Positions 41,590 to 47,100 of a DNA stretch of 64,000 bases are shown piece after piece. The DNA is from Klebsiella phage KMI11. Made by a program: the position numbers and the translations under genes. The notes beneath the pieces are model-generated. The model made no database searches and was not told the DNA's origin. It was given only the letters and a program-made list of their open reading frames with translations. The stretch lies in sequence record MN101225.1. One strand, 5' to 3'. Within the stretch, counting starts at the first letter, position 1, and each line of letters begins with the position of its first letter.

Positions 41590-41940
41590 ATGAATATCAG
41601 AGCTGCGTTTAATACTTTCTATCAAGAGAATTATAAGCTTCTTGCCCATGAATACCATGATGCACAAGGCGTTCCAATTCCTAATGATTTAGTTACGCCT
41701 AAGCATGTCAAAACCGATTCTCTTGACAATGAAATCCAGCCTGGTGATTTGGTATCATACTATTGCGGCGGGTCACTTTCTGCAGCAAGCGTTGGTATTT
41801 TGCTAGGATTTACTCCTAAAGGTTATCGTGTGGTTCCTTTCCATACAAGTCCAATTCCTGAGCACCGGGTATTGCTCTCTCATATGGATTCACCACATAG
41901 GGTATTCCTGGTTAAATCAAAGAGCTCACCGATTGTGTAA
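41590..41940 (+). CDS. hypothetical protein
   Basis: ATG at 41590 after GAGG; 116 aa. Confidence 0.45.
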   Translation: MNIRAAFNTFYQENYKLLAHEYHDAQGVPIPNDLVTPKHVKTDSLDNEIQPGDLVSYYCGGSLSAASVGILLGFTPKGYRVVPFHTSPIPEHRVLLSHMDSPHRVFLVKSKSSPIV

Positions 41941-42002
41941 TATGCTTTAGGTTTTCTTTGTTATTATTAATCTATCAACTGCTCTGATTAATTTCAGGGC
42001 AG

Positions 42003-42010
42003 TATAAATA
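42003..42010 (+). promoter_or_regulatory. late promoter TATAAATA immediately upstream of the first tRNA
   Basis: exact TATAAATA 13 nt before tRNA-Tyr. Confidence 0.6.
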
Positions 42011-42022
42011 AAATTACCCATT

Positions 42023-42109
42023 GGGGAGTTAGACCGTAGGGGTAGCGGGACAGACTGTAAATCTGTTGCTCAAAAGGCTCGAGTGGTTCGACTCCATTAC
42101 TCCCCACCA
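42023..42109 (+). tRNA. tRNA-Tyr(GUA), class II (long variable arm)
   Basis: acceptor GGGGAGU/ACUCCCC, anticodon stem ACAGA/UCUGU loop cuGUAaa, T-arm GGTTCGACT, A73, encoded CCA. Confidence 0.85.
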
Positions 42110-42115
42110 AATTTA

Positions 42116-42192
42116 GGGATACTAGCTCAGTTGGTTAGAGCACCGGACTTTTAATCCGGGTGTCCGAAGTTCGAGTCTTCGGTGTCCCACCA
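42116..42192 (+). tRNA. tRNA-Lys(UUU)
   Basis: acceptor GGGAUAC/GUGUCCC, anticodon stem CCGGA/UCCGG loop cuUUUaa, T-arm CGAAG-TTCGAGT-CTTCG, CCA. Confidence 0.85.
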
Positions 42193-42197
42193 AATTC

Positions 42198-42282
42198 GGG
42201 TCGTTGGCTGAGAGGGTAAGCGACGGACTGTTAATCCGTGTCAGAAATGACTAGGCAGGTTCGATACCTGCACGGCCCGCCA
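42198..42282 (+). tRNA. tRNA-Asn(GUU) with unusual 15-nt variable arm and 3-bp D stem
   Basis: anticodon arm ACGGA-cuGUUaa-UCCGU is identical to the E. coli tRNA-Asn anticodon arm; acceptor GGGUCGU/ACGGCCC, G73, CCA; extra GUCA-GAAA-UGAC hairpin in the variable region. Confidence 0.7.
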
Positions 42283-42536
42283 AATGAAGAAGTCAGAAGA
42301 CGTTCTGATAAAATCGTCGGCACAGAAATCCCTGGCATGGCGTTTGTATTAAGGAGTATGATTTCATCCTGCTTAATGCTTGTTCATGTTATAATTTCTT
42401 ACGGCGTTGAAAGTTCGCTTTCAGGGATACATCTTAGAGCAGAGTGTTAAACAAGATTCATCTGGTACCAAGGTGATGAGAGCCCTGTTCCCCTTTGCTT
42501 CGGCATCGTGCCAGAGTATCTCTGAAAGCGAATTAT

Positions 42537-42613
42537 GGACCTATAGTTTAGTTGGTTAAAATACTCCCCTGTCACGGGAGAGAGCACGGGTTCGATCCCC
42601 GTTAGGTCCGCCA
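42537..42613 (+). tRNA. tRNA-Asp(GUC)
   Basis: acceptor GGACCUA/UAGGUCC, anticodon stem CUCCC/GGGAG loop cuGUCac, G73, CCA. Confidence 0.85.
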
Positions 42614-42774
42614 AATAAGAACGTGGCAGTTCTTGAAGATGAGTTTGAGTCCTATAAGATAATGCCGAGGACGAAGCTGTTTGTTCCCACGGAATAAGCT
42701 CTATATTCGTAAGATTATATCTTTAGCGTGTTCTACATCAAGCTACTTGTTAGTACTTCAAGAACCCGGATAAA

Positions 42775-42851
42775 TGCGGAGTAACTTCAGTTGGTAGAAT
42801 GTTGGGCTCATATCCCGACACGCGCAGGTTCGAGTCCTGCCTCCGCCTCCA
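42775..42851 (+). tRNA. tRNA(CAU), initiator-like (fMet-type features)
   Basis: anticodon loop cuCAUau on a stem with three consecutive G:C pairs (GGG/CCC) next to the loop, as in initiator tRNA; 1:72 is a U.C mismatch; T-arm GCAGG-TTCGAGT-CCTGC; CCA. Confidence 0.65.
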
Positions 42852-42856
42852 ACAAT

Positions 42857-42931
42857 TGGACTATAGACAAGCGGTTAAGTCACCGGCCTTTGACTCCGGT
42901 ATCTCTGGTTCGAATCCAGATAGTCCAGCCA
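42857..42931 (+). tRNA. tRNA-Gln(UUG)
   Basis: U1-A72, CAAGCGGUAAG D-loop and CACCGG as in E. coli tRNA-Gln; anticodon loop cuUUGac; G73, CCA. Confidence 0.85.
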
Positions 42932-43026
42932 AATTAATATTCATTCAACGCGTCTACAGGGGTTGAACTGATCATTCTTCTCTTAATTTCGTATGAAGTC
43001 CTCATGATGGATGGAGTGAATATTGA

Positions 43027-43103
43027 TGTGGCCGTAGTTCAGTTGGTAGAACTCAGCATTGTGATTGCTGTCGTCGACGGTTCAAATCCGTCCGGTCACC
43101 CCA
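43027..43103 (+). tRNA. tRNA-His(GUG)
   Basis: anticodon stem CAGCA/UGCUG loop uuGUGau; acceptor GUGGCCG/CGGUCAC, C73, CCA; no encoded G-1. Confidence 0.8.
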
Positions 43104-43199
43104 ACAATGAAGGAATGGTGGAAAAATACACGGCCCGCAAAACGCTGTGGCTGTCGCTAAGCGAATTGTGTCTATATGACACTTCCTTCACCAAATACT

Positions 43200-43284
43200 G
43201 GAGAGTAGCGCTAGTGGTAGCAAACCGGACTTGAAATCCGGGCCATCGGAAACGGTGAGGGTTCAACTCCTTTACTCTCCGCCA
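43200..43284 (+). tRNA. tRNA-Ser(UGA), class II
   Basis: acceptor GGAGAGU/ACUCUCC, anticodon stem CCGGA/UCCGG loop cuUGAaa, long variable arm, G73, CCA. Confidence 0.85.
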
Positions 43285-43350
43285 AATTTATGAAAGTTAA
43301 ACGCTGCCCATAGCAGTGGTACATCAACAATTAGATGATTAGCTTTCCAT

Positions 43351-43426
43351 GGGAGTATAGCTCATTTGGTAGAGCTCTCGACCGATAATCGAGCGGTGAC
43401 TGGTTCGAGTCCAGTTACTCCCACCA
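43351..43426 (+). tRNA. tRNA-Ile(GAU)
   Basis: acceptor GGGAGUA/UACUCCC, anticodon stem CUCGA/UCGAG loop ccGAUaa (C33), A73, CCA. Confidence 0.8.
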
Positions 43427-43432
43427 AATAAC

Positions 43433-43507
43433 AGGTTCTTAGTATAACGGCTATTATGCTGGGCTCCAAACCCAGTGATGAGGGTTCGATTCCTTCAGGG
43501 CCTGCCA
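43433..43507 (+). tRNA. tRNA-Trp(CCA)
   Basis: acceptor AGGUUCU/AGGGCCU, anticodon stem CUGGG/CCCAG loop cuCCAaa, G73, CCA. Confidence 0.8.
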
Positions 43508-43512
43508 AATTT

Positions 43513-43587
43513 GCATCCATCGTATAACGGCTATTATAGGTGACTTCCACTCACTTGATAAGGGTTCGATTCCCTTTGGATGCTCCA
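43513..43587 (+). tRNA. tRNA-Gly(UCC)
   Basis: acceptor GCAUCCA/UGGAUGC, anticodon loop cuUCCac, T-arm AAGGG-TTCGATT-CCCTT, U73, CCA. Confidence 0.85.
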
Positions 43588-43592
43588 AATTA

Positions 43593-43669
43593 CTCCGTAT
43601 AGCTCAGTCTGGTAGAGCGTTCCATTTGGGATGGAAAGGTCGAATGTTCGAGTCATTCTATGGAGACCA
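43593..43669 (+). tRNA. tRNA-Pro(UGG)
   Basis: anticodon stem UUCCA/UGGAA loop uuUGGga; T-arm GAATG-TTCGAGT-CATTC; A73, CCA. Confidence 0.85.
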
Positions 43670-43675
43670 AATTAA

Positions 43676-43819
43676 CGGTATGACACAATACAAGATGGCG
43701 TAAGCTGAGTAGCGGGATTGCAGTCTCGTTCAGATATGCTATCGAGTATGGGTGATATATTAAACACATGGATTCTGCAAAGTCCATGTGACTCGGTTCG
43801 AGGCCGGGCATACCGTCCA
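43676..43819 (+). ncRNA. tRNA-like stable RNA candidate (about 144 nt; perfect acceptor stem, T-arm and CCA but oversized core)
   Basis: 5' CGGUAUG pairs 7/7 with 3' CAUACCG, followed by U73 and CCA; T-arm CUCGG-TTCGAGG-CCGGG; 7-bp hairpin ACATGGA/TCCATGT immediately 5' of the T stem; starts 6 nt after tRNA-Pro, matching the cluster spacing. Confidence 0.5.
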
Positions 43820-43844
43820 ATCACTTGCCATTGAGAAATATATT

Positions 43845-43997
43845 ATGAAATATTACGGCTTCAAAACATCCCATTTCGGGAAAGCATATCGTACAGAAAA
43901 CATTGATAGACGTCGAGCATATTACGAATCACTGCATAAAGCAGGACGTTCTCGTGCACGACAAGAAGGCCAAAAACAAGCGAAGGAAATAGAATGA
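43845..43997 (+). CDS. small basic protein
   Basis: ATG at 43845 (MKYYGFK...) chosen because the track ORF's earlier portion overlaps the tRNA-like element; basic C-terminus. Confidence 0.35.
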   Translation: MKYYGFKTSHFGKAYRTENIDRRRAYYESLHKAGRSRARQEGQKQAKEIE

Positions 43998-44359
43998 ATA
44001 TTTTTATTGGTGTTGCAAATAACGTAAATGCTATTACGGTGAAATTACAATGGAATCGTCCAACTAATTTTGCTTTAGGATTATGTAAATCTGAACGTGA
44101 TTTAATGCTTCATGCTGATTTTGCATACACTTTTGATGAACGCAAAGGTATGTGGGTCTGGATTAAATGCAGATACGAAGCATTAATCAAATATGAGTAC
44201 TTCAGTGAGCGTGATATTCAAGAAGTTATTGCTTATCATTCTGGCTGTAAAGTAAGTAAACTGCGTCAAGTTATTCCGTTTACTAATGCTTCAAATGTAG
44301 AAGAGCTAATTACTGATTTTAAACGAATTTATCAGGCGAAATATGATGAAAGATTCTAA
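43994..44359 (+). CDS. hypothetical protein
   Basis: 121-aa ORF, ATGA coupling. Confidence 0.45.
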   Translation: MNIFIGVANNVNAITVKLQWNRPTNFALGLCKSERDLMLHADFAYTFDERKGMWVWIKCRYEALIKYEYFSERDIQEVIAYHSGCKVSKLRQVIPFTNASNVEELITDFKRIYQAKYDERF

Positions 44360-44576
44360 AGGTCGAGACGTACAAGTTGGTGATATCGTTTTCTACGGAG
44401 AACGTACATATAATAAAGGTGGTCGTGGTTCTATGCGCTGCGGTCGTATTACAGATATTGCTTCAGGATTGGCTAAAGTAGATAACGACTACGTTGCAAT
44501 GCGAAGCAAATCATTCGTTAAGGTTTCTCCTATGTTCGCAACAATGTGGGAAAACGGAACGATTTTCGAGATTTAA
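44343..44576 (+). CDS. hypothetical protein
   Basis: 77-aa ORF. Confidence 0.4.
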   Translation: MMKDSKGRDVQVGDIVFYGERTYNKGGRGSMRCGRITDIASGLAKVDNDYVAMRSKSFVKVSPMFATMWENGTIFEI

Positions 44577-44630
44577 TGCTACAAGAATAACCTGTTATTA
44601 TTACTACATCAAAACAAACAAGGAAAAAGA

Positions 44631-44855
44631 ATGAAACGTATCGCACTGATTGTTGACCAAGAAGCTATGTTCGCTGCTACCGGTAAATTTCATCCGGTGA
44701 GTAAATTTGTTGCTCGCAGCGAGAAAATCGTTGGTCTGGTAGAAACTGTCGCAGGTGATGTAATTGTTTCTATTAAAACGTCTGAAATTTCTCCAGTAGT
44801 TAAAGTAGCAGTTGAAAATGACTTCTGGGAAGTAGCTGATTTTATGTGTGAGTAA
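44631..44855 (+). CDS. hypothetical protein
   Basis: 74-aa ORF with AAGGAAAAAGA RBS; followed by a terminator. Confidence 0.45.
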   Translation: MKRIALIVDQEAMFAATGKFHPVSKFVARSEKIVGLVETVAGDVIVSIKTSEISPVVKVAVENDFWEVADFMCE

Positions 44856-44888
44856 TTCTGCCTAGCAGGTGGATAAGCCCGACAAGGC

Positions 44889-44908
44889 GCCCTCTTCGGA
44901 GGGCTTTT
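44889..44908 (+). terminator. rho-independent terminator GCCCUC-UUCG-GAGGGC-UUUU
   Basis: 6-bp GC stem, UUCG loop, T4 run. Confidence 0.75.
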
Positions 44909-44933
44909 ATAAAAGTCATAAGATTTCTATAAA

Positions 44934-45010
44934 GGCCCTGTAGCTCAATTGGTAGAGCGTTCCCCTCATAAGGGATTGGTTGCATGTTCGAGTCTTTGCC
45001 AGGGTCACCA
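44934..45010 (+). tRNA. tRNA(CAU), elongator Met or Ile2(k2C)-type
   Basis: acceptor GGCCCUG/CAGGGUC fully paired (G1-C72), anticodon stem UUCCC/GGGAU loop cuCAUaa, TTCGAGTC T-loop (8-nt loop or imperfect stem), A73, CCA. Confidence 0.65.
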
Positions 45011-45029
45011 AATTAATGAGGAAAATATT

Positions 45030-45230
45030 ATGATGCGATTAGTTAAAGTAGTTGTAGAAGAATCTGAATACATGGGCGATAGCCGAATGATTGAAGAATT
45101 CGTTACTGTTGAGGCAGATTCTGAATCTGAAATCGCTGATAAAGTTTATCGTCATTTTGATAATATGTCTGATTCGTATGGCACAATGTATAACATTTAT
45201 CGTTTAGATGTAATAGTACATATCAACTGA
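45030..45230 (+). CDS. hypothetical acidic protein
   Basis: ATG at 45030 after GAGG; the track's upstream extension overlaps the tRNA. Confidence 0.45.
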   Translation: MMRLVKVVVEESEYMGDSRMIEEFVTVEADSESEIADKVYRHFDNMSDSYGTMYNIYRLDVIVHIN

Positions 45231-45240
45231 GGAAATTGAA

Positions 45241-45798
45241 ATGCATATTAAATTTGGACAAGTTATTCCTAAAGGCTTAGCAATGGCAATTACCACTTGG
45301 GAAAACGATGCTGATCGGTATTCTACCCAAATGGTTTATGGCTTAGAAAAAGAAGAGATTAATCAAGTAATTCACGTTCTTGAATGGTTCTCTTCTAATG
45401 GTCGGCGTGGTGAATACCTTGGAAATAATGATTACAACCATGAAGCAATTCTTGAAAAGCTTCATACTGAACAGAAGTATGTAACTCCTGAATTTTCCAA
45501 GAAATTCTTTGGCGTTGATGTTCCTGCATATGATTGTTCAGACGAAGAGTTTGATGCTTATTTAGATAACCACTATTCTTGTTCAAATGAAGTTATGTAT
45601 GCTATTCAGGCTTGGTTGGGTAATCCAATTGAATATGATTATGATTTCATGCGAGTATTTGAGAAAGTTGAAATCTTTGATATTAAAGAAGAAATTCGTA
45701 TTCCTGATGCTCCGGTTGCATTCCATATTGGAATTACGTATAAGCAGAAAGAAAGCCCATTAAAAGTTGATTGGTTGAAATACGTGAAGGAAAAGTAA
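45241..45798 (+). CDS. hypothetical protein
   Basis: 185-aa ORF. Confidence 0.5.
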   Translation: MHIKFGQVIPKGLAMAITTWENDADRYSTQMVYGLEKEEINQVIHVLEWFSSNGRRGEYLGNNDYNHEAILEKLHTEQKYVTPEFSKKFFGVDVPAYDCSDEEFDAYLDNHYSCSNEVMYAIQAWLGNPIEYDYDFMRVFEKVEIFDIKEEIRIPDAPVAFHIGITYKQKESPLKVDWLKYVKEK

Positions 45799-46248
45799 AT
45801 GGATATTGGTTCAGGTAGTTCATATCCATCATGTGCTTTGAGCAACTTTGCTCCTCATAAATTTATCTATGATGGCGTAGAATGTGCATCAATGGAGGGA
45901 TTCTTGCAGTCCCTCAAATTTTCTTCGCCTGAAATGCAAGCACATGTATGTACATTAGTTGGTAAATCGGCTAAGTTCAAAGGTAAAAAGAAACGGTGGT
46001 GGCCAACTCAAACACTTTATTGGAAAGGCGTGCCAATCCATCGTGCTTCAGAAGCGTATCAGAATTTACTGACAGGAGCATACGATGCACTTAGTAAAAA
46101 TGAAGGATTCAGAAAAGCTTTGGCTGCTACCCGGAATGCTACGCTCACTCACAGTATGGGCAAAAACAAAATTTCTGAAACGATTTTGACTGAACGCGAA
46201 TTCTGTAATCAACTTTATCGTTTGAGAAATGCTATAAATAATCAGTAA
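45799..46248 (+). CDS. NADAR/YbiA-like (DUF1768) domain protein, putative ADP-ribose N-glycosidase
   Basis: 149 aa; N-terminal block LSNFAPHKFIYDGVECASMEGFLQSLKF matches the NADAR core (LSNF..PF....F.S.EH.FQA.KF); translationally coupled to the upstream ORF. Confidence 0.5.
   Translation: MDIGSGSSYPSCALSNFAPHKFIYDGVECASMEGFLQSLKFSSPEMQAHVCTLVGKSAKFKGKKKRWWPTQTLYWKGVPIHRASEAYQNLLTGAYDALSKNEGFRKALAATRNATLTHSMGKNKISETILTEREFCNQLYRLRNAINNQ
46233..46240 (+). promoter_or_regulatory. late promoter TATAAATA upstream of the second tRNA subcluster
   Basis: exact TATAAATA 20 nt before the tRNA-like element at 46260. Confidence 0.55.
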
Positions 46249-46259
46249 TATAATTATCT

Positions 46260-46387
46260 TGTTCAGTGTTGAAATCGGTAGACATGGTGACGGACACCTT
46301 TTGAGCTCGCATATTGCATCATATGCTGGCGACGGTGGTAAATCGCTGACGGAATCAGTCGTGCAGGTTCGAGTCCTGCCTGAACAA
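46260..46387 (+). ncRNA. tRNA-like stable RNA candidate (about 128 nt) fused 3 nt upstream of tRNA-Arg
   Basis: 5' UGUUCAG pairs 7/7 with 3' CUGAACA; canonical T-arm GCAGG-TTCGAGT-CCTGC; D-loop-like AAUCGGUAGAC; about 55 nt of extra core including a GCATAT-TGCATC-ATATGC hairpin; no clean anticodon arm found. Confidence 0.5.
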
Positions 46388-46390
46388 TCT

Positions 46391-46467
46391 CGGGGCATAG
46401 CTCAGTTGGATAGAGCAGCGGACTTCTAATCCGCAGGTCGAAGGTTCGAATCCTTCTGCCTCGACCA
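46391..46467 (+). tRNA. tRNA-Arg(UCU)
   Basis: acceptor CGGGGCA/UGCCUCG, anticodon stem GCGGA/UCCGC loop cuUCUaa, T-arm GAAGG-TTCGAAT-CCTTC, A73, CCA. Confidence 0.85.
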
Positions 46468-46471
46468 TTTC

Positions 46472-46556
46472 GCATCGATGGTGGAACTGGTATACACAGG
46501 AGACTTAAAATCTCCCGCCGCAAGGATTGAGGGTTCGAATCCCTCTCGGTGCACCA
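46472..46556 (+). tRNA. tRNA-Leu(UAA), class II
   Basis: acceptor GCAUCGA/UCGGUGC, anticodon stem GGAGA/UCUCC loop cuUAAaa, long variable arm, A73, CCA. Confidence 0.85.
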
Positions 46557-46566
46557 AATTAAGACC

Positions 46567-46652
46567 CCGGGAATAGTTGCTTAAACTTAGTGAGGAATTC
46601 AACGGCAGATACGTCTGTGCAACTACATAAGGTTCGAATCCTTATTTCCGTC
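46567..46652 (+). ncRNA. tRNA-like element (86 nt; T-arm and 6/7 acceptor pairs, noncanonical core) abutting tRNA-Thr
   Basis: T-arm TAAGG-TTCGAAT-CCTTA; 5' CCGGGAA versus 3' UUUCCGU (C1.U72 mismatch); internal long-range AGTTGC...GCAACT helix and GCAGA-TACG-TCTGT hairpin; no CCA. Confidence 0.4.
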
Positions 46653-46656
46653 TTAA

Positions 46657-46732
46657 GCCGATTTAGCTCAGCTGGTAGAGCGCTTCACTTGTAATGAAGA
46701 TGTCGCGGGTTCGACTCCTGCAATCGGCACCA
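46657..46732 (+). tRNA. tRNA-Thr(UGU)
   Basis: acceptor GCCGAUU/AAUCGGC, anticodon stem CUUCA/UGAAG loop cuUGUaa, T-arm GCGGG-TTCGACT-CCTGC, A73, CCA. Confidence 0.85.
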
Positions 46733-46934
46733 AATTCGAAGGGAAACTTGCGTATGCCCTCGTTGAGTCGTCAGATAGAAGAGAATGGTTCGTCCATTGC
46801 CGCTAGTCGGTTGTTCCCTGTCGCAAGCATAACCTCCTGACGCTATACTCCTTTGGATGAGACTGATGCCTCCGAGTTCAAAGGAATGAATTTAGCAGGT
46901 CATCTGCCAGTAGGTGATGCTGTCGATTCTCAGA

Positions 46935-46959
46935 GCCCTGTCTTCGGACGGGGCTTTTT
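46935..46959 (+). terminator. rho-independent terminator GCCCUGUC-UUCG-GACGGGGC-UUUUU closing the tRNA transcription unit
   Basis: 8-bp stem, UUCG loop, T5 run. Confidence 0.8.
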
Positions 46960-47100
46960 AGTATACAATAATACCGCAATTATAGCCCAGATACCTTCTA
47001 GAGGTCGTCTGGGCATTTCTATATCCCCAGCTGTATAAATCCATTCTACTCTCTAGAAAGTCCTTCCAGATTCCCTAAAATTATTTGAAAATTTGTGCAC

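Follow-up and report, generated by a model that had tools for sequence, protein, structure and literature searches.

Phage T4 carries in its transfer RNA (tRNA) cluster two stable RNAs, species 1 (rnaC) and species 2 (rnaD), which have had no known function since the 1970s, as is still the case in the literature of 2010, 2022 and 2025. Northern blots detect RNAC and RNAD as discrete late RNAs of T4 (PMC9697503), and both genes are still listed as being of unknown function (PMC3014915, PMC9697503). In the original T4 record, the species 1 RNA extends from CGATTCG to CGTTTCGT, i.e. from the start of the acceptor stem to the discriminator, with CCA not encoded, and the species 2 RNA extends from ATGAGAAACC to GGCGCACCA; both RNAs follow tRNA-Arg, which rnaD adjoins. 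Here we report an analysis of three tRNA-like elements, E1, E2 and E3, embedded in the tRNA cluster of Klebsiella phage KMI11, in a 64,000-nt stretch of its sequence record MN101225.1 (the window), together with a rnaD-like sequence of the same cluster. The three elements had been noticed in an original prediction, made from the sequence alone, as RNAs with intact acceptor stems, T arms and CCA but oversized cores, the larger two of which might be the counterparts of species 1 and 2, and the third an extra copy. The four features are listed here with their coordinates in the window; models R1-R3 are described below.

43676-43819, plus strand: E1, an almost certain rnaC ortholog; its acceptor has 7 bp, arm 1 is long and branched, arm 2 has 10 bp, and a T arm, discriminator U and an encoded CCA follow (model R1, fold).
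46260-46387, plus strand: E2, core type A, with acceptor, class-II-type D arm (GAAAUCGGUAGAC) and T arm, a long arm replacing the anticodon arm, discriminator A and no CCA (model R3).
46563-46652, plus strand: E3, with acceptor, UA, a stem GTTG(C)/(G)CAAC, inside which lie the loop CUUAAACUUAGUGAGGAAUUCAACGG and a UACG hairpin, then UACA and T arm, and no CCA (model R2).
42286-42410, plus strand: rnaD-like sequence directly after tRNA-Asn, in which a 5' hairpin precedes a long arm enclosed by the terminal helix UCGUCG/CGGCG; ends approximate (profile and fold).

A tRNA-shaped module that serves processing or stability, with the function located elsewhere in the RNA, is found in YrlA, the viral tRNA-like RNAs of MHV68, the MALAT1 mascRNA and the engineered 'tRNA scaffold', and we propose a similar arrangement for E1-E3. 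These modules come from other families and hosts; unlike in E1-E3, the tRNA-like part of YrlA is internal and its Ro-binding stem lies at the ends, and the eukaryotic examples belong to ribonuclease (RNase) Z and RNA polymerase III contexts. The tRNA-like domain of transfer-messenger RNA (tmRNA) is similar in having an acceptor and a T arm without an anticodon arm, with one long helix leaving the junction. However, E2 and E3 lack the G3.U70 alanine identity pair of tmRNA, their third acceptor pair being U-A in E2 and G-C or C-G in the E3 copies, and they have no coding or pseudoknot domain.

Three RNA genes whose top halves alone resemble tRNAs

Over the 3.5 kb around E1-E3, identity is 99.3% with Klebsiella phage KPV15 (Straboviridae, Tevenvirinae, Jiaodavirus) and 95-96% with most of the remaining Jiaodavirus members. 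ARAGORN and Rfam agree on 16 canonical tRNAs, all on the plus strand, which form two sub-clusters, 42023-43669 and 46391-46732, a single tRNA-Met being placed at 44934. E1-E3 are not among them, in line with the original prediction that they would not fold into a canonical cloverleaf: no tRNA was called for E1-E3 by ARAGORN, by Rfam at its gathering score, or by Rfam at E<=10 over 41900-47100, and they lack the combination of 5-bp anticodon stem, 7-nt loop and above-threshold score that defines an RF00005 or ARAGORN cloverleaf. When introns were allowed and thresholds lowered, ARAGORN returned only forced tRNA models with mutually inconsistent anticodons. Rfam hits to plastid untranslated regions at E<=10 were by-products of tRNA arms, and the YrlA family (RF02553, gathering score 69 bits) gave only 22-25-bit hits spanning a T arm and the next tRNA.

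The elements lie where the prediction had placed them, at 43676-43819, 46260-46387 and 46567-46652. The acceptor and T-arm helices are CGGTATG/CATACCG (7/7 pairs) and CTCGG-TTCGAGG-CCGGG in E1, TGTTCAG/CTGAACA (7/7) and GCAGG-TTCGAGT-CCTGC in E2, and CCGGGAA/TTTCCGT (6/7, from 46567) and TAAGG-TTCGAAT-CCTTA in E3, and all three elements have a canonical T loop as well, which would suit the stack of about 12 bp that acceptor and T stem form in RNase P substrates. The spacing is also tRNA-like, as claimed, with E1 starting 6 nt after tRNA-Pro, E2 ending 3 nt before tRNA-Arg, and E3 ending 4 nt before tRNA-Thr. Two details require amendment. CCA is encoded in E1, after discriminator T, but not in E2 or E3. 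The acceptor of E3 is indeed present from 46567, but E3 itself probably starts at G46563, from which an extra GAC...GTC pairing with a CCC bulge leaves an AATTAA spacer, as at other junctions of the cluster.

The prediction further held that such complementarity was unlikely to arise by chance. When the 64 kb were scanned on both strands for the loop TTCRANN on a 5/5 T stem with an acceptor strand directly after it, 7/7 acceptors were found in the real tRNAs, E1 and E2 only, which bears out the argument for these two elements. Acceptors of at least 6/7 arise about four times per window by chance, so that the E3 acceptor alone is not significant, and it is covariation across phages that carries E3. 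Within Jiaodavirus, E1-E3 are more conserved than their surroundings, as seen from phage JD18, which is 95.5% identical to the window over the 3.5-kb region and 98.8%, 99.3% and 100% identical in E1, E2 and E3, respectively. Comparison of T4-like genomes, which the prediction had proposed as a check and which for E3 included jumbo phages, revealed compensatory changes in 12/46 pairs of rnaC, 11/29 of E2 and 10/21 of E3. E1-E3 are thus shown to be three distinct, conserved, structured RNA genes that combine tRNA top halves with non-tRNA lower halves.

Many Jiaodavirus records place coding sequences for a 'hypothetical protein' over E1, E2 and the stretch after tRNA-Thr, and short open reading frames (ORFs) do overlap the elements. 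That these regions encode small proteins is nevertheless hardly credible, since the substitutions follow compensatory base pairing and not codons, the ORFs are not conserved between genera, and the E1 homolog is recorded in T4 as a stable RNA, seen by northern blot.

E1, the rnaD-like sequence and the two T4 stable RNAs

Homologs of rnaC were gathered from Tequatrovirus, Karamvirus and IMG/VR contigs via the motif GTAAGCYGAGTAGCG, and eight aligned sequences, all from outside Jiaodavirus, were used to build the covariance model R1, in whose consensus structure the 46 pairs given above were counted. R1 has a single match in the 64-kb window, which is full-length and coincides with E1 (43675-43819, 83.1 bits, E=2.6e-19). 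E1 and T4 rnaC agree in the four-arm layout of their minimum free energy (MFE) folds, and the E1 fold itself is strong (MFE -57.6 kcal/mol, z-score -5.2). Moreover, the ends of E1, from the acceptor start to the discriminator U, are those of the Broida & Abelson T4 record. From these sequence and fold comparisons we are nearly certain that E1 is the ortholog of the T4 species 1 RNA, as the prediction had suggested for its 144-nt element.

T4 rnaC (NC_000866 70908-71046; X03016 4741-4877) and E1 share, besides architecture, ends and discriminator U, a position directly after a tRNA and the conserved motifs GUAAGCYGAGUAGCG and CGUUCRGAUAUG. They differ in that CCA is encoded in E1 whereas the T4 gene stops at the discriminator, in that the two U.U mismatches of the T4 acceptor are replaced by Watson-Crick pairs in E1, and in the diverged sequences of the arms. 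The downstream sequences differ as well. In T4, rnaC is directly followed by CACTTGCC joined to TTGGCAGGTGGAACCCCGACAAGG (CACTTGCC joined to TTGGCAGGTGG...CGACAAGG) and then by a terminator, whereas in the window this sequence is split by about 1 kb, with its first half at 43822-43829, its second half at 44862-44910 and four small ORFs (43845-44855) in between. The ORFs thereby stand between E1 and the downstream hairpin and terminator of T4 type. The split looks as if an ORF cassette had been inserted behind rnaC, ahead of the terminator.

R1 also matches rnaC in phages PG7, EcS1 and Marfa and in two related contigs, the Karamvirus copies, from PG7 and EcS1, reaching about 150 bits compared with 83 bits for E1; no rnaC was found with R1 in the searched loci of S16, CF1 or jumbo phages. 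Among Klebsiella-phage records, blastn finds E1 in 130 and E3 in only about 58. In PG7 (KJ101592), a 95-nt 'tRNA-Met' of the GenBank record (L005 630-724) falls inside the rnaC ortholog (L005 585-725, 157.7 bits with R1). A Marfa-like variant of rnaC (L010 12187-12328, minus strand; Marfa L009 9225-9366) has a replaced arm 1 without the GTAAGCYGAGTAGCG motif but retains the acceptor, arm 2, the T arm and an encoded CCA, and it still scores 75-80 bits with R1.

A counterpart of the second T4 RNA was searched for with an nhmmer profile of rnaD homologs from T4, CF1, CIP9 and contigs L010 and L028, with no Jiaodavirus sequence included. The profile has one match in the window, at 42277-42444 (E=1.2e-7). 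The fold of 42286-42410 (MFE -36.4, z-score -3.2) has the architecture of T4 rnaD, in which a 5' hairpin is followed by a long arm enclosed by the terminal helix GUCGUCG/CGGCG, and a T arm is lacking. This sequence carries no annotation in KPV15. By profile and predicted fold, the phage has a rnaD-like RNA, but it lies away from E2 and E3.

The location of the profile match speaks against the suggestion that E2 is the species 2 counterpart and E3 an extra copy of the same kind, which we consider highly improbable. The sizes of E2 and the T4 RNA are indeed similar (128 vs 120 nt), and rnaD, like E2, is a stable RNA of a tRNA cluster that adjoins tRNA-Arg. However, the local alignment of E2 with rnaD is at chance level (z=-0.4), neither E2 nor E3 is related to rnaD in sequence or structure, and E2 folds into an acceptor, a D arm, a long arm and a T arm, the last of which rnaD lacks. 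In addition, CF1 carries E3 and a true rnaD homolog side by side. E3 is therefore not an extra copy but, as described below, a family of its own that also occurs in unrelated jumbo phages. A motif shared by T4 rnaD and E3, CUKAGURAGGAAUU, was considered and dismissed as not significant (z=1.4), CF1 having both RNAs.

E2 with a swappable core and E3 with an invariant loop

Copies of E2 were found by blastn in about 178 phage records, from Jiaodavirus, Karamvirus (PG7, 82%) and, in part, from Serratia phages CHI14/X20 and EcS1; no copy was found in the T4 tRNA region. The ends of E2 are constant and the core occurs in at least three types: type A in the window, KPV15 and PG7; type B in KLB2, TNG87, Marfa-like phages, Enterobacter phage ZX14, Edwardsiella phage PEi26 and Kosakonia phage 305 (full length in 54 records); and type C in CHI14 and EcS1. 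Types A and B both occur within Jiaodavirus at the same locus, between flanks that are 98% identical. Common to all types are U8, a D stem of 3 bp that includes a purine.A mismatch, the D-loop sequence AAUYGGUAGAC and a T arm of canonical form. In the window, the long arm consists of an outer helix GUGA/UCGC, a helix CACC/GGUG and the hairpin GCAUAU-UGCAUC-AUAUGC. The hairpin loop varies by type (UGCAUC/UGAAUC, UUGGUAC and UUUAAGCAC).

In ten sequences of types A, B and C, the top half of E2 is 96% paired and the T stem covaries. The full structure including the long arm, aligned for types B and C only, is 98.8% paired, and the 11 of its 29 pairs that changed on both sides include seven in the long-arm helices; its covariation score is 0.409 vs 0.205 in shuffled alignments and at most 0.131 in slid controls. 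The covariance model R3, built from core types B and C only, recovers the type A copy of the window at full length with all helices aligned (46260-46387, 82.1 bits, E=6.8e-18), followed by the phage tRNA-Leu genes with 39-45 bits and other tRNAs with no more than 29 bits. With class II tRNA-Leu, E2 shares U8, the 3-bp D stem with its purine.A mismatch, the AAUYGGUAGAC sequence with G18 and G19, the T arm and the 7-bp acceptor. Unlike tRNA-Leu, it is 124-128 nt long, has neither a 5-bp anticodon stem with a 7-nt loop nor a consistent anticodon, and has no fixed discriminator and no CCA; E. coli leucyl-tRNA synthetase needs A73. To judge from alignments and model scores, E2 is a tRNA-Leu-derived RNA that forms a separate family, with a long three-helix arm in place of the anticodon arm. 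A loop-E/sarcin-ricin motif or K-turn in the internal loop of E2 (NUUUGAR / AGUA) was considered and dropped, the strand registers being off consensus. A degenerate E2-like element is found in CF1 (L075 3607-3730, 35 bits with R3) just upstream of tRNA-Gly; its D arm is intact, its acceptor and T arm are decayed, and it is likely a pseudo-copy.

Public records label E2 as tRNA-Thr, tRNA-Ser, tRNA-Val or tRNA-OTHER or cover it with a hypothetical protein, and ARAGORN with introns reports a tRNA-Ala(ggc) with a 33-nt intron. These contradictory anticodons argue against a real decoder. The prediction had mentioned intron- or insert-bearing tRNAs as one alternative, and functional tRNAs (Thr, Ser, Val, Ala or OTHER) from which an intron or insert is removed could be envisaged: ARAGORN does fit an intron model to E2, the type B hairpin loop UUGGUAC resembles a Thr anticodon loop, and T4-like phages encode RNA ligase and kinase/phosphatase. 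We regard this as very unlikely, because different records and core types imply different anticodons (Ala, Thr, Ser, Val, NNN), the loops of types A and C measure 6 and 9 nt, removal of the insert leaves no 7-nt anticodon loop, and the Rfam tRNA model has no match even at E<=10. To our knowledge, there is also no splicing system for tRNA inserts of 30-50 nt in bacteria or their phages.

E3 was found by blastn in about 85 records. It occurs in the T4-like phages of Jiaodavirus, Marfa-like phages, Salmonella phages S16/STML-198 and Citrobacter phage CF1, as well as in unrelated jumbo phages, namely Serratia phages Moabite and 2050HW, Klebsiella phage N1M2, Pectobacterium phage vB_ParM-25 and Shewanella phage SXP01. 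The family, as defined by the copies in CF1, Moabite, 2050HW, N1M2 and SXP01, has a common layout that the window copy fits: acceptor, UA, a 4-5-bp stem, an invariant stretch, a hairpin, the 3' strand of the stem, 3-4 nt and the T arm. The invariant 25-nt stretch, YUUAAACYUAGUGARGGAAUUCRAMGG, is purine-rich, resembles a ribosome-binding site (RBS) and is the same across unrelated phage families. By contrast, the acceptor sequence differs in every lineage, yet it pairs 7/7 in CF1, Moabite and SXP01.

The covariance model R2, built from the CF1 and four jumbo-phage copies with no Jiaodavirus sequence, matches the window at 46567-46652 (70.4 bits, E=4.4e-15), real tRNAs scoring at most 25 bits. 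In the 12 aligned copies, 96.4% of cells are paired, and the covariation score, to which the 10 pairs changed on both sides contribute, is 0.513 vs 0.199 in shuffles (0/500 as high), with slid controls at or below 0.149. The alignment used for these counts was fitted to the model; a table compiled by hand shows the same result. R2 did not find E3 in the searched loci of T4, PG7, CHI14, EcS1 or phage 15882-1. The loop motif with a downstream T arm has no real copy, only chance matches, in one genome each of 185,579 bacterial and archaeal species, and a metagenome scan for the loop motif gave only chance matches and Jiaodavirus-like contigs. Judged by its loop motif, E3 appears to be phage-only. 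Taken together, the sequence comparisons show E3 as a third family, predicted to be an acceptor/T-arm minihelix with one stem presenting an invariant loop.

The genomic setting of E3 varies. In S16 it stands directly after tRNA-Arg, the spot that rnaD occupies in T4, and in CF1 it is followed by the rnaD homolog. Within Jiaodavirus, the slot between tRNA-Leu and tRNA-Thr is polymorphic, with E3 in some genomes and another RNA in phage 15882-1 (L142, PQ537369). The latter is a 112-nt RNA (minus strand, ~805-694) with an 8-bp terminal helix, an encoded CCA and four hairpins. The same phage has, after tRNA-Thr, a 78-nt tRNA-like gene (minus strand, ~603-525) with canonical D and T arms and a 12-nt 'anticodon' loop, for which ARAGORN makes no call. 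In N1M2 (L076 ~2364-2466) and SXP01 (L140 ~1620-1700), a shared element beside E3, GTGATGGTGGATGATTAGTTTCTACCACTGG ... GTCAGGTTARAsTCCTGA, has a T-arm-like hairpin and is possibly one more tRNA-like RNA family.

Several readings of the E3 loop were tried and set aside. CsrA-site and Shine-Dalgarno/epsilon-like interpretations are resemblance only, with no conserved start codon. The E3 motif GGAAUUCGACGG resembles over 12 nt the 5' sequence of E. coli tmRNA, GGAUUCGACGG, with no model support; mimicry of the tmRNA domain was rejected, as Rfam gave no tmRNA match at E<=10 and the motif stands at a different place in the fold.

Could the elements be decaying pseudo-tRNAs, i.e. former tRNA genes broken by insertions and without a function of their own, as the prediction had also allowed? 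The acceptor, D arm and T arm of E2 are clearly tRNA-Leu-like, the E3 acceptor is degenerate in Jiaodavirus and S16, and CF1 has the decayed E2-like copy described above. On the other hand, the non-tRNA cores are conserved and covary, most clearly in the long-arm helices of E2, unrelated phage families share the 25-nt loop of E3 unchanged, the ORFs around the elements are less conserved than the elements themselves, and the T4 homolog of E1 is an RNA that is known to accumulate. Given conservation with compensatory changes, decay appears quite unlikely, and E2 and E3 are probably functional tRNA-like RNAs. Literature searches found no description of E2 or E3, and no Rfam family matches either of them at E<=10. 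E1 is a new member of a known RNA, and E2 and E3 are new variants of the tRNA-cluster stable RNA.

Proposed transcription, maturation and function

The elements are embedded in the following features of the cluster.

46391-46556, plus strand: canonical tRNA-Arg(UCU) and tRNA-Leu(UAA), between E2 and E3 (ARAGORN, Rfam).
46657-46732, plus strand: tRNA-Thr(UGU), 4 nt past E3 (ARAGORN, Rfam).
46233-46240, plus strand: T4 late-promoter consensus TATAAATA, located 20 nt ahead of E2 (sequence search).
42003-42010, plus strand: T4 late-promoter consensus TATAAATA, located 13 nt ahead of tRNA-Tyr and heading the first sub-cluster, which E1 ends.
44889-44910, plus strand: intrinsic terminator downstream of the ORF block behind E1, GCCCTC-TTCG-GAGGGC with TTTTAT after it (terminator scan, 44889-44904).
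46925-46949, plus strand: intrinsic terminator GCCCTGTC-TTCG-GACGGGGC followed by TTTTT, closing the second sub-cluster (read from the sequence).

Only five plus-strand TATAAATA sites occur in the 64 kb, and two of the five stand directly before the two tRNA sub-clusters. From what is known of T4 late promoters, the site at 46233 probably starts an E2-Arg-Leu-E3-Thr transcript. The strong UUCG-loop terminator at 46925-46949 was obtained as a partial fold and is absent from the terminator-scan list. The arrangement of late-promoter consensus and terminators around the sub-clusters fits T4, where RNAC and RNAD are late RNAs. The ORFs between E1 and E2 belong to PHROG families of unknown function; the last one is in the Pfam family Phage_30_3, and some records name it Acb1, an inhibitor of the cyclic-oligonucleotide-based antiphage signalling system (anti-CBASS).

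Three spacers of the cluster deserve mention. The non-coding region from tRNA-Thr to the terminator (46733-46925) is conserved in Karamvirus, Moonvirus and Erwinia and Serratia phages and contains a long-range helix that covaries (CGUCAG/CUGACG in the window vs GUCGUG/CACGAC in PG7, L005 4683-4920) as well as a motif that weakly resembles rnaD (z=3.2); the region probably forms a structured 3' trailer or one more stable RNA. Conservation is also seen for the 160 nt that precede tRNA-Met (42614-42774), both in CF1 (L075 ~2780-2956) and in a Marfa-like contig (L010 ~12640-12471, minus strand), always just upstream of tRNA-Met; this spacer may be a further non-coding RNA or a leader. The spacer before tRNA-His (42932-43027) terminates in GAAGTCCTCATGATGGATGGAG, a relative of which stands before a tRNA-Met in L010 (~13200-13165, minus strand).

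Based on the T4 precedent, E1-E3 would be transcribed together with the phage tRNAs. The coaxial helix of acceptor and T arm, with its T loop, is the part expected to be recognised by RNase P, 3' trimming nucleases and the CCA-adding enzyme, so the three RNAs may be cut from a polycistronic precursor like tRNAs, as the T4 species 1 RNA is, and their tRNA-like ends may protect them from decay. None of them is predicted to decode, because there is no consistent 7-nt anticodon loop. The tRNA top half would then be a scaffold for processing and stability, and the lower half, variable or invariant, the working part.

Another possibility is that the elements are cis-acting, tRNA-shaped processing signals, a 'punctuation' that directs RNase P cuts and in this way sets apart or stabilises the adjacent tRNAs and mRNAs, with no role for the excised RNA. 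Such punctuation is established in mitochondria and for MALAT1/mascRNA. The positions of E1, at the boundary between the tRNA block and the ORF block, and of E2, which has an ORF on one side and tRNA-Arg on the other and closely follows a late-promoter consensus, would suit this role. We nevertheless think it unlikely, since an acceptor/T-arm helix would suffice for the purpose, which leaves unexplained why the 25-nt loop of E3 is the same in different phage families, why the long arm of E2 covaries and why rnaC has a conserved 60-nt arm, and since E3 is flanked by two tRNAs with signals of their own.

Rather than cis signals, we favour three different genes for stable, non-decoding tRNA-like RNAs that would be processed as tRNAs and act on a host factor. 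That the lower halves act on a host component is suggested by the exchange of E3 among unrelated phages of related hosts (Enterobacterales and Shewanella), its absence from bacterial genomes, the swaps of E2 cores between near-identical flanks, and the alternative RNAs in one slot. The lower half may bind or titrate a host protein related to tRNAs, ribosomes or defence, as a decoy or sponge in takeover or counter-defence; this particular function is put forward as a tentative possibility.

Several observations weigh against this proposal. The MFE z-scores are not significant for E2 (-0.4) and E3 (-0.6). The E3 acceptor is weaker in Jiaodavirus (5-6/7, with co-varying lengths of a G-run and a C-run) and poor in S16 (4/7). 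The E2 discriminator is A, C or U and CCA is not encoded, and with these ends aminoacylation of E2 is unlikely. The longest exact complements of the single-stranded parts of E1-E3 in the rest of the window, 10-11 nt, are at chance level. The argument for RNase P processing is drawn from the shape of the RNAs and from T4. Furthermore, T4 deletions of rnaC and rnaD grow normally on laboratory strains, so that any function may be conditional. With these points taken into account, we judge the explanation as a whole to be reasonably probable. An evolution experiment on a T4-like phage adapting to semi-permissive E. coli reports a convergent single-nucleotide polymorphism in the rnaD region (PMC12685909), which is compatible with a host-dependent role and proves nothing.

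The presence of at least four stable-RNA families in one cluster indicates that this kind of RNA is broader than thought. Public records leave E2 and E3 unannotated or list them as odd tRNAs or hypothetical proteins, and models such as R1-R3 would correct recurrent mis-annotations in hundreds of genomes of therapeutic Klebsiella phages. The families also provide comparative handles, in the invariant loop of E3, the core types of E2 that swap within a genus, and the single slot with alternative RNAs. More speculatively, T4-like phages and several jumbo phages of Enterobacterales may share horizontally exchanged, tRNA-shaped effector RNAs that are matured by the host and act as decoys against tRNA- or ribosome-directed immunity or translation factors. 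Such a repertoire, equally conjectural, might include rnaC and rnaD, the E2 family and its exchangeable cores, E3 and its invariant, RBS-like loop, and other variants of the slot. If this were true, the long-standing puzzle of the species 1 and 2 RNAs would become one case of RNA-based counter-defence, and the core types of E2 would be arms-race alleles.

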